Of a stretch of DNA of 64,000 nt, positions 2,588 through 6,901 are shown piece after piece. Position numbers and translations under genes: made by a program. Position 1 is the stretch's first letter. Each line of letters starts with the position of its first letter. This DNA is from Candidatus Poribacteria bacterium (GTDB taxonomy: Bacteria; Poribacteria; WGA-4E; JAJDTR01). Where the stretch lies: contig CBDCTK010000002.1 of the NCBI GenBank assembly GCA_965222225.1, positions 608,001 to 672,000 on the forward strand. The letters are read 5' to 3'. The notes below the pieces were generated by a model. The model worked only from the letters and a program-made list of their open reading frames with translations. It ran no database searches and was not told the DNA's origin.

Positions 2588-2617
2588 TTGACACTGTAAC
2601 ATCGCTTATGATATACT
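2588..2617 (+). promoter_or_regulatory. Sigma70-type promoter of the hisI-trpE operon
   Basis: TTGACA, 18-nt spacer, TATACT with extended -10 TG. Confidence 0.75.
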
Positions 2618-2657
2618 TAATCGGCTCTCTGGCGAAGATAGAATGTGGAAGACCCAG

Positions 2658-2759
2658 ATGCAAACTTCAAATCGACAACAACAACTTCAAACTGTATCTC
2701 ATCATTGGCATTGGTGGTGGAGCGCTGTTCAGAATGGGAGTGTGCCTTTGCTGAGATAG
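2658..2759 (+). CDS. His/Trp-rich attenuator leader peptide
   Basis: MQTSNRQQQLQTVSHHWHWWWSAVQNGSVPLLR*. An alternative in-frame ATG lies at 2643. Confidence 0.85.
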   Translation: MQTSNRQQQLQTVSHHWHWWWSAVQNGSVPLLR

Positions 2760-2787
2760 ATTTTTGGATTCATATTTTAGATAAATC

Positions 2788-2829
2788 AAAGCCGTAGGCA
2801 CACGAAACCTGTTGTCTACGGCTTTTTTT
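2788..2829 (+). terminator. Attenuator terminator
   Basis: AAAGCCGTAGGCA...TGTCTACGGC followed by T7. The left arm can alternatively pair with GTGTGCCT at 2740-2747. Confidence 0.88.
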
Positions 2830-2876
2830 GTGCCGAATTATCTAGCAAGCAATCGTTGCAACAAGGAGAAAGGTGA

Positions 2877-3260
2877 ATGGATATCCTCAATGAACTCAAA
2901 TTCGACAAAACCGATTTAATTCCTGCCATCATACAAGACGACGAAAACAATGAAGTTCTCATGATGGCTTTTATGAATCGCCAGGCATTGCAGAAAACCA
3001 TAGAATCCGGGCGTGTATGTTTCTGGAGTCGGTCCCGCCAAGAATACTGGATTAAGGGGGAGACTTCGGGGCACACCCAAACCGTCAAGTCCATAGCCTT
3101 TGACTGTGATGGTGACGCGCTCCTGATTAAGGTCGAACAGAAAGGCGGGGCGTGCCACACCGGTTATCGCTCCTGTTTCTTTCGGGATGTCTCCTCCGAT
3201 GGCAATTCCAGCCACATCGTAGGCAAGAAGGTTTTTGATCCTGATAAAGTATACTCGTGA
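2877..3260 (+). CDS. hisI: Phosphoribosyl-AMP cyclohydrolase
   Basis: [26 protein letters not shown] and [10 protein letters not shown] motifs. Confidence 0.97.
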
Positions 3261-3314: not shown

Positions 3315-4799
3315 ATGTATTACCCAAGTTTGGAAGATTTTCGAAAAAAGGCGCAACATGGCAACCTAATTCCTGTCTATAAGTCGATTTTGGCGGATAT
3401 GGAAACCCCTGTGTCAACGTTTAACAAGATTGATGCCGGTGAATACAGTTTCTTGCTAGAAAGCGTTGAGGGGGGTGAACACGTTGGAAGGTATTCGTTT
3501 CTCGGTAGTGAACCATCAATTCTGTTTCAGAGTAAAGAAAATCAGGTGCGCATACAGGATTTGGAGGCAGGCACAACAACGGAGTTCGAAAGCAGCTATC
3601 CACTCGGCGAGCTTGAGAAATTGATGAAGTGCTATCAACCCGTGGAGGTCGAGGGATTACCGCGTTTCCACGGCGGCGCTGTCGGCTACTTTAGTTATGA
3701 CGCTGTGCGTTTTTTTGAAGAGTTGCCCGACAACACAGAAGATGATCGGCATTTGCCAGACTGCTTCTTTATGGTTACAGATACTCTGTTGATATTCGAT
3801 CGGGTTAGTCATCGGATTACGGTGGTAGCGAACGCACATGTTGATGATGACGTAGAGGGCGCATACCAGCGTGCGATTCGACGTATCGACACGCTGATTG
3901 CCAAGCTGAAGAATCCTTTGTTGATGCCGCCTTCAAACGTGCAGCGTGCGGATATAGCCGAGGTTGAGCCTGAATCGAATTTCACACAAGCTGAATATAA
4001 ATCCATTGTCTTACGAGCAAAGGAATATATCGCCGCGGGTGACATCATCCAAGTTGTTCCCTCGCAGCGGCTGTGTATGCCGTTATCAGTGGACACCTTT
4101 GACGTGTACCGTGCGTTGCGTACCGTCAACCCGTCACCATACATGTATTACCTAAAGTTGGGCGACATTCAGATAGCAGGTACTTCTCCTGAAATGATGG
4201 TGCGAGTTGAGGATGGAATGGCGGAGACACGTCCTATCGCCGGGACGCGGCCACGTGGAGACACACCCGCTGAAGATGTGGCGCTGGCAGAGGAGTTGAT
4301 TGCGGATGAGAAGGAGCGTGCCGAACATGTCATGCTTGTCGATCTTGGTCGCAACGATCTGGGGAGAGTTTGCAAATTCCACACAGTTCGCGTTACTGAG
4401 ATGATGTCGATTGAGCGATATTCGCATGTCATGCACATTGTTTCGCATGTTGTTGGCGAACTGTGCGAAGATGTGACCGCCTTTGATGTTATCCGTGCAT
4501 GTTTACCTGCTGGGACACTTTCAGGGGCGCCCAAGATTCGAGCTATGGAGATAATTGATGAGCTTGAACCAACGCGCCGCGGCCCTTATGGTGGGGCTGC
4601 CGGATATTTCAGCTTTTCCGGAAATGCCGATACGGCTATCATCATTCGTACCCTAATCGTCAAAGGTGGCATCGCTTACGTGCAAGCTGGCGGTGGGGTT
4701 GTTGCAGATTCCGTTCCTCAAACCGAGTACGAAGAAACACTCAACAAAGCGCAAGCCGTGCTAAGAGCAATTAAATTGGCTGAGGCAGGATTGGAGTAG
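3315..4799 (+). CDS. trpE: Anthranilate synthase component I
   Basis: LLES, NPSPYM, PIAGTRPRG, KERAEHVMLVDLGRND and GTLSGAPK motifs. Confidence 0.96.
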   Translation: MYYPSLEDFRKKAQHGNLIPVYKSILADMETPVSTFNKIDAGEYSFLLESVEGGEHVGRYSFLGSEPSILFQSKENQVRIQDLEAGTTTEFESSYPLGELEKLMKCYQPVEVEGLPRFHGGAVGYFSYDAVRFFEELPDNTEDDRHLPDCFFMVTDTLLIFDRVSHRITVVANAHVDDDVEGAYQRAIRRIDTLIAKLKNPLLMPPSNVQRADIAEVEPESNFTQAEYKSIVLRAKEYIAAGDIIQVVPSQRLCMPLSVDTFDVYRALRTVNPSPYMYYLKLGDIQIAGTSPEMMVRVEDGMAETRPIAGTRPRGDTPAEDVALAEELIADEKERAEHVMLVDLGRNDLGRVCKFHTVRVTEMMSIERYSHVMHIVSHVVGELCEDVTAFDVIRACLPAGTLSGAPKIRAMEIIDELEPTRRGPYGGAAGYFSFSGNADTAIIIRTLIVKGGIAYVQAGGGVVADSVPQTEYEETLNKAQAVLRAIKLAEAGLE

Positions 4800-4820
4800 A
4801 CAGATGGACAGGAGAAAACT

Positions 4821-5509
4821 GTGAGTGTGACGCTCGCCCAAGTCGTCCCTTGGGGCAGATCGCTTGAAGAGTACCGACAGATGTTCATGCTCGCCGACGA
4901 AGAACGGACCTTGAAGATTCTAGGAGTTGGTGATGGGCCAGCTAGTTTCAACAGCGAAATGAAGGTGCTGGGTTATACCGTAGTATCAATAGATCCAATC
5001 TATGCACTTTCAAAAAGAAACAGATTGAACAGAGGATTGACAAGACGTACGATACTGTCGTCTCTCAAGTGAAACAAAAACCTGATGATTTCGTGTGGGA
5101 ATTTTTTGTAAACCCAAAGCACTGTGGTTGCTGCCGACTTGAAACGATGCGAAAGTTTTTGCAGGATTATGAGATGGGGAAGTTGCAGGGGCGTAATATT
5201 CCTTCGTCGTTACCAAAACTCGATTTTGACGATTAGCAGTTTGATTTGGCAGTGTGTTTGCATTTGCTCTTTTTGTATTCCGATCAGTTATCATTCAGTT
5301 TTCATCGAGAGTCCATTCAAGAGCTCTGCCGCGTTTCACGAGAGGTGCGAATTTTCCCGCTACTAGCGCTTGATTGCAAGAAGTCGCCGTACGTTTCATC
5401 CATCCAATCGTATTTTCGGGACATGGGCTTCACGGTTGACATTTGTTCAGTACCCTATGAGTTTCAAAAGGGCGGGAACGAGATGATGAGAATTTGCAGG
5501 GATGCTTAG
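4821..5509 (+). pseudogene. SAM-dependent methyltransferase, frameshifted
   Basis: VPWGRSLEEYRQMF...GDGPASFN in one frame and HLLFLYSDQLS...EVRIFPL...VPYEFQKGGNEM in another. Confidence 0.8.
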
Positions 5510-5519
5510 GAGAAAAACA

Positions 5520-6083
5520 ATGATGCTCATGATTGACAATTACGATTCGTTTACTTACAATCTCGTCCAATACTTCGGTGAGCTAGGGGCAGAGCTTGTA
5601 GTTCATCGCAACGACAAAATAACATTAGGAGAGATTGAACGCCTCGCACCGGATAGAATTGTCATATCACCCGGTCCCTGCACACCTCGTGAAGCGGGGA
5701 TTTCCTGCGACGTAATCCGATATTTCGCGGGCAAGGTACCGATTTTGGGCGTCTGTCTGGGACATCAGTGTATTGGCGATGTCTTCGGCGGGGATGTAGT
5801 TCGTGCGGACCGATTGATGCACGGAAAAACGTCAATGATTGAACATAATGGGCGGAAAATCTTCGCGGGGGTGCAGAATCCGTTTGAGGCAACGAGGTAT
5901 CATTCCTTGATTGTAACGATGGACAGTATGCCAGAATGCCTTGAAGTCACTGCTTGGACGATCGAGGAAGAGATTATGGGGTTGCGACACAAAGACTTCC
6001 CAATCTGGGGTGTACAGTTTCATCCGGAATCAATCTTGACACTTGAAGGGAAAAATATGCTGGAGAATTTCTTGAAAGGCTAA
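5520..6083 (+). CDS. trpG: Anthranilate/aminodeoxychorismate synthase component II (glutamine amidotransferase)
   Basis: [22 protein letters not shown] and QFHPES motifs. Lies downstream of trpE. Confidence 0.92.
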
Positions 6084-6086
6084 GAG

Positions 6087-6662
6087 ATGTCGGAAACGGA
6101 TCTTCGTACAGAACTTGAATATACCAAAACAATTGAAGACCCACTGCGCCGGCGACTCTATGTTTGTGCGCTTGTCACGGCAGCACTTCCACATTCAAAC
6201 AGGCTACCCTATGTTGTCGTCGTCGGCAATGCGCTAGAGTTCTACACGCTTGGCGATTACACCACCGCGGATGTCGATCTCGTTAGTGGAAGACGATCCG
6301 AAATCGGCAATATATTGGAAAATTGGGGGTTTAATCGGATGAGAAGGCACTGGTATCACGCCGACTTGGATGTTGCCATTGAAATCCCTGATGATGTCCT
6401 CGCCGGATCAGAAGAAAAAATTACGCAGGTCGAGATTGAGGGCTTGAACGTCTATATTATCGGTGTAGAGGATTTAATCATTGACCGGGTCAACGCGTAT
6501 GATCACTGGCGGTCAATTGATGATGGCGATTGGGCAAAAGAGCTAATGGCTTTGTACAAACACGAGATCGATTGGGATTACCTTGTAACATCTGCGCGGA
6601 CAGAAGAGATACTTGATGCACTGAATACACTGAAATCGGCGACTGAGGAAGAGACGATATGA
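6087..6662 (+). CDS. Nucleotidyltransferase-fold protein (DUF6036-like)
   Basis: VVVGNALEFYT..YTTADVDL (G..A plus DxD) and IIGVEDLIIDR. Confidence 0.6.
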   Translation: MSETDLRTELEYTKTIEDPLRRRLYVCALVTAALPHSNRLPYVVVVGNALEFYTLGDYTTADVDLVSGRRSEIGNILENWGFNRMRRHWYHADLDVAIEIPDDVLAGSEEKITQVEIEGLNVYIIGVEDLIIDRVNAYDHWRSIDDGDWAKELMALYKHEIDWDYLVTSARTEEILDALNTLKSATEEETI

Positions 6663-6901
6663 GAATTGTGAACTTCGATCAACACGTCCAAAAAATAAGA
6701 GAGAAATCAAGAGAATATCAACTCAAGCAACGCGCAAAACAGTCGCACCGGTCACCTCGTCGCCGTCCGCGAGATGCGGATTCACGTCGAGATTCGATCG
6801 AATTATCGCTTAAACGCCGCGAACAATGGTTGAAGGATGGGCGGCTGGAAAAACTTGGACCGCGGCATTACCGTGTGCGTCTCAAGGAAGAACCTGTTTG
6901 A
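6659..6901 (+). CDS. Small basic hypothetical protein
   Basis: ATGA overlap with the upstream gene. The stop codon lies in the MITE end. Confidence 0.55.
   Translation: MRIVNFDQHVQKIREKSREYQLKQRAKQSHRSPRRRPRDADSRRDSIELSLKRREQWLKDGRLEKLGPRHYRVRLKEEPV

Follow-up and report, generated by a model that had tools for sequence, protein, structure and literature searches.

How can a transcription unit that opens with a gene of histidine biosynthesis and continues with genes of tryptophan biosynthesis be adjusted to the supply of both amino acids? This question is raised by positions 2588–2829 of the window analyzed here, a 64,000-nt stretch of DNA from an uncultured sponge bacterium of Candidatus Poribacteria (coordinates refer to this window unless another contig or locus is named), in which a short leader lies upstream of the genes hisI, trpE, and trpG. 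The analysis of the sequence indicates that this leader is probably a classical ribosome-mediated leader-peptide transcription attenuator that controls hisI-trpE-trpG and that would sense both Trp and His in the manner of an OR gate. The confidence is not the same for all parts of this interpretation. There is little doubt that the element is a genuine ribosome-mediated attenuator responding to Trp, and it is likely, as far as the codons can tell, that limitation for His relieves termination too. If so, the mixed his/trp operon of this bacterium is likely to be switched on when either of the two amino acids is short.

The leader and its two competing helices

The region begins with a strong sigma-70-type promoter on the forward strand (2588–2617), which is composed of TTGACA, an 18-nt spacer with a TG extension, and TATACT, and which reached 11 of 12 in a consensus scan. 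The identical TTGACA and extended −10 box were seen in the upstream regions of relatives. Downstream of it, on the same strand, an open reading frame (ORF) of 33 codons followed by a TAG stop codon (2757–2759) extends from 2658 to 2759; its translation is MQTSNRQQQLQTVSHHWHWWWSAVQNGSVPLLR. An in-frame ATG at 2643 adds five codons (MWKTQ-), in which case the product would have 38 codons (MWKTQMQTSNRQQQLQTVSHHWHWWWSAVQNGSVPLLR). It is ATG 2658, not ATG 2643, that is kept as the start in relatives (M-Q-T...), and the purine-rich sequence GGAAG, 6 nt 5' of ATG 2658, is a putative ribosome-binding site. At 2700–2720 (forward strand) the ORF reads CAT CAT TGG CAT TGG TGG TGG and thus contains a run of seven control codons, HHWHWWW.

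Two alternative helices can be formed by the transcript. The 5' strand of the antiterminator (region 2, GUGUGCCU, 2740–2747, forward strand) is located inside the leader ORF and ends 10 nt before the stop codon, and the 3' strand (region 3, AGGCACAC, 2796–2803, forward strand) overlaps the 5' arm of the terminator. The antiterminator comprises 8 bp, GTGTGCCT at 2740–2747 being exactly complementary to region 3. The intrinsic terminator (2788–2829, forward strand) has a 13-bp stem, AAAGCCGUAGGCA / UGUCUACGGCUUU, with the 5' arm at 2788–2800 and the 3' arm at 2813–2825, and a U7 tract (T-run 2823–2829); hisI starts 47 nt further on. It dominates the minimum free energy (MFE) fold as well as the centroid fold. 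A simple terminator scan had missed it because its loop exceeds the 8-nt limit of that scan.

Both helices are conserved and covary. The statistics are based on an alignment of 43 distinct leader-to-terminator sequences, in which 94.8% of the cells of the terminator helix are paired and compensatory changes on both sides are seen at three of its pairs (17 cells), and in which pairing drops to 29–51% when the partner strand is slid by 1–3 columns. For the antiterminator helix, 96.8% of the cells are paired; one position occurs as GU (28), GC (9), and AU (5), and a second position changes from CG (36) to GU (6) in the family in which the terminator arm changed too. None of 500 shuffles reached the observed pairing or covariation of the terminator, and none of 500 reached the score of the antiterminator, a control that overstates significance because the aligned sequences are related; better evidence comes from the slid controls and from the double changes. 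The consensus structure obtained with RNAalifold from the 43 sequences is the terminator. For the leader of the window itself, the MFE structure of the RNA 2733–2812, in which the 3' arm of the terminator has not yet been made, is the antiterminator (−22.2 kcal/mol), and after the 3' arm has been added, the terminator (−27.1 kcal/mol) is predicted to be more stable than the forced antiterminator (−23.3 kcal/mol). These modeled energies fit the kinetic switch that would be expected between the two helices. A first-pass annotation of this DNA, made from the letters alone, had proposed the promoter, the 33-codon leader with its seven control codons, the terminator, and the antiterminator at these very positions, and had suggested folding the leader region and aligning the upstream regions of related hisI-trpE loci; both analyses bear it out, with the terminator in the full fold, the antiterminator before the 3' arm exists, and conserved, covarying stems in the alignment.

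The arrangement exceeds what chance would produce. A scan of the whole genome for short ORFs rich in one residue and with a strong terminator behind them returned 132 rows, nearly all noise-like and none of them a classical His-run leader, and the leader of hisI-trpE was the sole row upstream of a tryptophan gene; in addition, elements of this design are found repeatedly in the phylum, as described below. The element was not recognized as a known RNA family: a cmscan of 2450–2900 against 4,227 Rfam families, with E-values up to 10, yielded four chance-level matches (snoRNA and NrrF models, best E-value 3.8), and neither Trp_leader (RF00513) nor His_leader (RF00514) was matched.

From these features we infer ribosome stalling, a kinetic choice between the helices, and a physiological response, as follows. 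Transcription would start a few bases past the −10 box (2612–2617), and a ribosome would translate the 33-codon leader. With ample charged tRNA-Trp and tRNA-His, the ribosome would reach the stop codon and mask region 2, in which case the terminator would form and transcription would halt before hisI. With either charged tRNA scarce, the ribosome would stall in HHWHWWW, 19 nt upstream of region 2, and the free region 2 would pair with region 3 before the 3' arm of the terminator is made, resulting in readthrough into hisI, trpE, and trpG. Because His codons are mixed with Trp codons in the run, and because a stall at either would give the same structure, the leader would act as an OR gate. The distances in related leaders are compatible with such a mechanism. 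Among 51 distinct upstream regions from Poribacteria, 45 contain the motif W-x-W-W together with the antiterminator strand. In these 45 leaders, 17–22 nt lie between the end of the motif and region 2, and the stop codon begins 4–19 nt, mostly 10–12 nt, after region 2. The usual footprint of a ribosome covers about 12–15 nt on each side of the P site. Judged by this footprint, a stalled ribosome would free the antiterminator strand and a finishing ribosome would cover it, as the first-pass annotation had supposed.

Control codons and operon content

The closest public relatives (97–63% HisI identity) are designated Candidatus Poribacteria. Within the order, hisI was found in all 41 sampled genomes, and trpE follows it in all 30 loci returned, the own genome included. 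In 25 of these 30 loci, a short ORF whose core reads W-H-W-W or W-Y-W-W lies upstream. As to the other five, in one (L006) an insertion lies in between and the leader is about 425 nt farther away, one locus is cut by the end of its contig, and the remaining three have a 33-nt insertion inside the leader, a diverged leader (genus g2), and a short variant (family f4), respectively. A covariance model, R1, was built from the antiterminator-to-terminator part of 40 sequences. It matched 37 of the 41 relatives and, in a phylum-wide sample of 151 genomes, 132. By family, the matches comprised 9 of 9 genomes in f1, 26 of 26 in f3, 92 of 100 in f2, and 2 of 4 in f4; none of 8 genomes in three other families of the class was matched, and 2 of 3 in two families of other classes were.

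What do these leaders encode? In the motif-bearing leaders that precede hisI, the position x of the W-x-W-W core is occupied by His in 59 of 62 cases and by Tyr in the other three. The central codon is CAT in 37, CAC in 6, TAC in 1, and TAT in 1 of the 45 leaders introduced above. In another genus, the largest, 17 of 18 further loci have the motif, always before hisI, with CAT as the central codon in 16 and TAT in 1; the motif was not seen in the remaining locus. Counted over a 10-codon control window in the 45 leaders, the number of Trp codons is three (32 leaders) or four (13 leaders), and the number of His codons is zero in 1 leader, one in 3, two in 6, three in 25, and four in 10. Altogether, His accounts for 130 of the 450 codons in the control windows (29%), compared to 27 of 983 (2.7%) elsewhere in the leaders. 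The N-terminal sequence of the leader is wholly different between families, and W-H-W-W is kept. The flanking His codons vary in place by lineage, with HH before the core in some and H after it in others. The first-pass annotation had made its case depend on the conservation of the His codons in homologous leaders, and they are indeed retained between the Trp codons in nearly all cases, with synonymous CAT/CAC variation. The part of the leader over region 2, by comparison, is read in different frames by lineage (..GSVPLLR, ..GVCLC, or ..EGVCAR, each followed by the stop codon). Different frames over the same RNA mean that conservation there is at the level of the RNA and not of the peptide, which argues against a nascent-peptide sensor.

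A natural comparison is provided by five genomes in which the same scaffold is located directly before trpE, without an intervening hisI. All five leaders have no His codon or a single one: the control regions read KRWWYTSW in G013, NWCWWWR in G042, and FWRWWWR in G043, with no His, and RWRHIDR in G016 and RWCHISW in G031, with one His each. In G013, G016, G031, and G042 a hisI homologue was found on another contig, only 47–50% identical, and with the same query hisI was not found in G043, a genome that is 88% complete. A trpE tree was computed from 26 representative rows chosen from about 100 loci. In this tree, the hisI-less genus g5 and a hisI-first genus are sisters within family f4 (support 98/96), and f8 groups with f9 (support 100/99). 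These groupings imply at least two changes in the presence of hisI, each matched by the content of His codons. Whether hisI was gained or lost cannot be stated because the backbone of the tree is unresolved.

The genes downstream of the leader are all on the forward strand. hisI (2877–3260) encodes a monofunctional phosphoribosyl-AMP cyclohydrolase (PRA-CH; Pfam PF01502; NCBIfam NF000768, 181.8 bits, cut-off 126), trpE (3315–4799) encodes anthranilate synthase component I (Pfam PF00425 and PF04715; TIGR00564, 586.9 bits, cut-off 517.7), and trpG (5502–6083) encodes anthranilate/aminodeoxychorismate synthase component II (Pfam PF00117; NF005799, 328.6 bits, cut-off 327). The hybrid gene set named in the first-pass annotation is thus recovered above the curated NCBIfam cut-offs for all three genes. 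The gap of about 700 nt between trpE and trpG (4800–5501) contains small ORFs of 83, 80, and 87 amino acids without a Pfam match. The genes trpA, trpD, hisG, and hisA/F are dispersed over the chromosome, away from hisI-trpE-trpG, and neither a leader nor a terminator was found upstream of trpD, hisG, and the hisA/F genes or upstream of the genes that precede trpA. The hisI gene of the operon is the only PRA-CH gene of the genome (a single match to PF01502). Therefore, in times of abundant tryptophan, an attenuator that responds to Trp only would slow histidine synthesis at an essential step. This conflict between the supplies of the two amino acids would be removed by His codons interspersed among the Trp codons.

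Outside of Poribacteria, similar leaders are scarce. Short ORFs rich in Trp and His were present within about 1.5 kb upstream of hisI in only 3 of 43 loci. Two of these loci are from Verrucomicrobiales metagenome-assembled genomes (L107, 537–700; L084, 482–640), in which the promoter-proximal leaders MIFSRWHWWH and MKFEFWHWCH, each ending at a stop codon, are followed by a GC-rich terminator and then by hisF-hisI-x-trpE, on a scaffold unrelated to that of Poribacteria. Judged from their sequences, these loci appear to represent an independent design with interleaved Trp and His control codons. One Sumerlaeota locus has ..KRYHHWRHWRIQP and a stop codon before hisF. No leader was found in the 420 nt before hisI in hisF-hisI-trpE loci of Omnitrophota, Planctomycetia, Auribacterota, and one "uncultured bacterium" (one locus each). 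Additional ORFs of the type CRWW..W..WP in several high-GC loci of Verrucomicrobia were discarded as probable chance frames.

The most serious alternative is that the attenuator responds to Trp only and that the His codons are passengers, retained for reasons of RNA structure or translation rate or by shared ancestry, in which case the operon would not be regulated by the supply of histidine. Indeed, Trp codons dominate, with three to four in each of the 45 leaders, and one His codon or none is present in the hisI-first leaders L024, L026, L027, and L060. In addition, the near-invariance of the 12-mer TGGCATTGGTGG at the nucleotide level is as expected under a constraint on the RNA. However, the central codon varies synonymously between CAT and CAC in several lineages, extra flanking His codons occur at variable positions that an RNA motif does not explain, His is enriched ten-fold in the control window relative to the rest of the leader, and the central position is taken by Cys or Arg, or is absent, in the trpE-only leaders. 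Furthermore, the unrelated Verrucomicrobiales scaffold likewise interleaves His and Trp codons before a his-trp operon, and with a switch for Trp only, abundant Trp would deprive the cell of its only HisI. In view of these findings, we regard sensing of Trp only as unlikely.

Several observations nevertheless weigh against dual sensing or against the switch as outlined. The hisI-first leader L060 (..SYSWYWWF..) has no His codon, in genus g2 both the Trp run and His are absent from the hisI-first leader (L015), and three of the 45 leaders are down to one His codon, while two of the five trpE-only leaders (G016 and G031) keep one. The his leader of E. coli contains seven His codons in a row, compared to the one to four of the leaders in Poribacteria. 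The CAU codon of the central His contributes to GGCAU, which resembles region 3, so that a constraint at the RNA level is possible, though CAC occurs six times. As the genomes are related, the association between hisI and the His codons rests on roughly two evolutionary transitions. Concerning the RNA, RNAalifold with the 43 sequences revealed no convincing conserved 1:2 (pause or anti-antiterminator) hairpin; all that it gave there was a hairpin of 4 bp among the control codons. An untranslated leader up to 2812 is predicted to fold into the antiterminator; according to this model, the state without translation may differ from that of E. coli trp. Last, the locus is present in metatranscriptomes as contigs in four RNA runs from two studies. 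The contigs X15 (2642–3161), X17 (2586–2859), and X18 (2726–2906) bridge the terminator, one contig starts at 2642 with deeper coverage than its neighbors, and one crosses the promoter, but such contigs cannot give transcript starts, ends, or levels and may reflect DNA carry-over or readthrough from upstream.

Variants of the locus, a paralogous copy and other functions

The locus has been rearranged in several relatives. In some of them, an insert of 160–420 nt separates the terminator from hisI (for example L006, 1081–1475, and L004, 1940–2042); these inserts have inverted repeats of 18–29 nt and resemble miniature transposable elements, and the attenuator is displaced from hisI but not destroyed. 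In the relative G030 (L018 / L050), a 33-nt insertion with a small hairpin of its own splits the control codons (SHHW-LVPHCEDPENRE-WHC..) and has probably inactivated the regulatory run. A tandem attenuator was also seen, with two complete copies of leader and attenuator upstream of hisI (L049; G130, contig C1, 4527075–4527352), the control regions of which read ..SHHWHWWRF.. and ..SHYWHWWRF... Family f4 (L066–L068) has a shorter variant of the leader and a longer, two-tier terminator. Its leaders are MKSAVCLFHYWC (L068), ..CLFHHWC, which is read in the same frame as in L068 and for which no ATG start was seen (L067), and ..FQHFWRMCERVPASE (L066), all of them ending at a stop codon. Since this stop codon follows almost directly after the control codons, the geometry of the switch must differ in f4. 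In the window itself, the region 3' of trpG (6087–6901) contains a DUF6036 nucleotidyltransferase-like ORF and an overlapping ORF of 80 amino acids, which together resemble an inserted two-gene module.

A paralogous copy of the element is present elsewhere in the same genome (contig C2, 2448150–2448500; L112, 250–600; L114). Its narrower coordinates on contig C2 are 2448376–2448491. It has its own TTGACA promoter, the same GGAGUGUGCCUUUGCUGA strand, a related terminator, and a different leader, MCFINGHHNNNLRWTNVHHTRGVCLC, that ends at a stop codon. A search of 10 genomes of the genus, the own genome included, revealed it in 8, and its downstream genes vary; in the own genome, it precedes the gene of a DUF5916/CBM9 protein. 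The paralog may be an orphan attenuator or a small RNA derived from an attenuator. This leads to a second alternative for the hisI-trpE copy, namely that the transcript of about 200 nt from promoter to terminator is the main product and acts in trans as a small RNA, the control of hisI-trpE in cis being secondary. The existence of the paralog, which is autonomous in its promoter, widespread in the genus, and found before variable genes, would agree with this idea, and so would the sequences of region 2 and the terminator, which are conserved far beyond what the structure alone requires. A precedent is the trans-acting rnTrpL of Sinorhizobium, which is derived from an attenuator (PMC6614838). 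However, the hisI-trpE copy always lies immediately before the operon, in cis, its control codons correspond to what the operon makes, and a role in trans would supplement an attenuator in cis rather than replace it. A small RNA as the main product is therefore very unlikely.

Least probable of all, and in our opinion hardly credible, is a TnaC-like sensor in which free tryptophan, instead of uncharged tRNA, would be the signal for the nascent WHWW peptide to arrest its ribosome: a conserved Trp-rich peptide motif is present, but the peptide is not conserved beyond it and its C-terminal part is read in different frames, a Pro-stop ending is lacking, a covarying pair of intrinsic terminator and antiterminator is present, and arrest by free Trp would induce at high Trp, the opposite of what a biosynthetic operon needs. 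TRAP/T-box-like readings were dropped together with the TnaC-like one, given that the C-terminus of the leader shifts frame between lineages and that no RNA family was matched.

Returning to attenuation with dual sensing of Trp and His, the comparisons also permit a more tentative view of its evolution, which we hold to be slightly less probable than its opposite. According to this view, the codon content of the leader tracks the gene content of the operon in evolution, with an ancestral Trp leader before trpE that has His codons where hisI intervenes and few or none where it is absent. Cross-pathway attenuation by His and Trp would then be recurrent in phyla related to the PVC group, including the unrelated scaffold of Verrucomicrobiales, and the scaffold of Poribacteria would have spawned the orphan paralog, maybe a small RNA that acts in trans.

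Comparison with known attenuators

Full-text searches of the openly accessible literature retrieved no paper on a leader with His and Trp codons, on a leader of hisI-trpE, or on attenuation in Poribacteria. According to a survey from 2010, proof of leader-peptide systems was at that time confined to Proteobacteria, Actinobacteria, and the survey's own case from Firmicutes (PMC2965389). If the interpretation is correct, the sensing of two amino acids of unrelated pathways by one leader peptide is a new combination, and Candidatus Poribacteria, which is uncultured, is a new phylum for leader-peptide attenuators. Homologous attenuators with and without hisI that differ in their His codons would show with rare directness how regulatory codons adapt when an operon is rearranged. 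Moreover, the element is small and can be tested in a heterologous host, and it is one of the few tractable handles on gene regulation in Poribacteria.

The closest functional counterpart is trpL of E. coli and Salmonella (RF00513). Both leaders contain a short ORF in which Trp codons stand in tandem (with Arg next in many of the relatives), a stop codon near the 5' strand of the antiterminator, and an antiterminator that competes with an intrinsic terminator, and in both the position of the ribosome sets, or would set, the switch upstream of trpE. In contrast to trpL, to which it has no homology in sequence or structure (no Rfam match), the leader of Poribacteria interleaves His with the Trp codons, its first gene is hisI rather than trpE, only trpE and trpG of the tryptophan pathway follow it, with trpD and trpA located elsewhere, and no clear 1:2 pause hairpin was found in it. 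Leaders with control codons for more than one amino acid are also known from enterobacteria, that is, thrL with Thr and Ile codons and ilvL/ivbL with Ile, Leu, and Val codons, and starvation for any of the respective amino acids relieves termination. In this respect the leader of Poribacteria is alike, but the amino acids of thrL and of ilvL/ivbL belong to one branched pathway, whereas His and Trp come from unrelated pathways that are joined only by the order of the genes.

A further parallel exists with trpL/rnTrpL of Sinorhizobium meliloti, which attenuates only the anthranilate synthase gene(s) trpE(G), the other trp genes being located elsewhere without a leader (PMC6614838). In both bacteria, the anthranilate synthase gene(s) are the only trp genes located behind the attenuator, and the terminated leader RNA could have a separate role. 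In S. meliloti, Trp is the only amino acid with control codons in the leader, and the genes behind it include no his gene; in Poribacteria, a role in trans is only hinted at by the orphan paralog. In its mechanism, the leader of hisI-trpE-trpG would unite the design of trpL with the sensing of several amino acids known from thrL and ilvL, and it is a member of neither of the two Rfam leader families, Trp_leader and His_leader.

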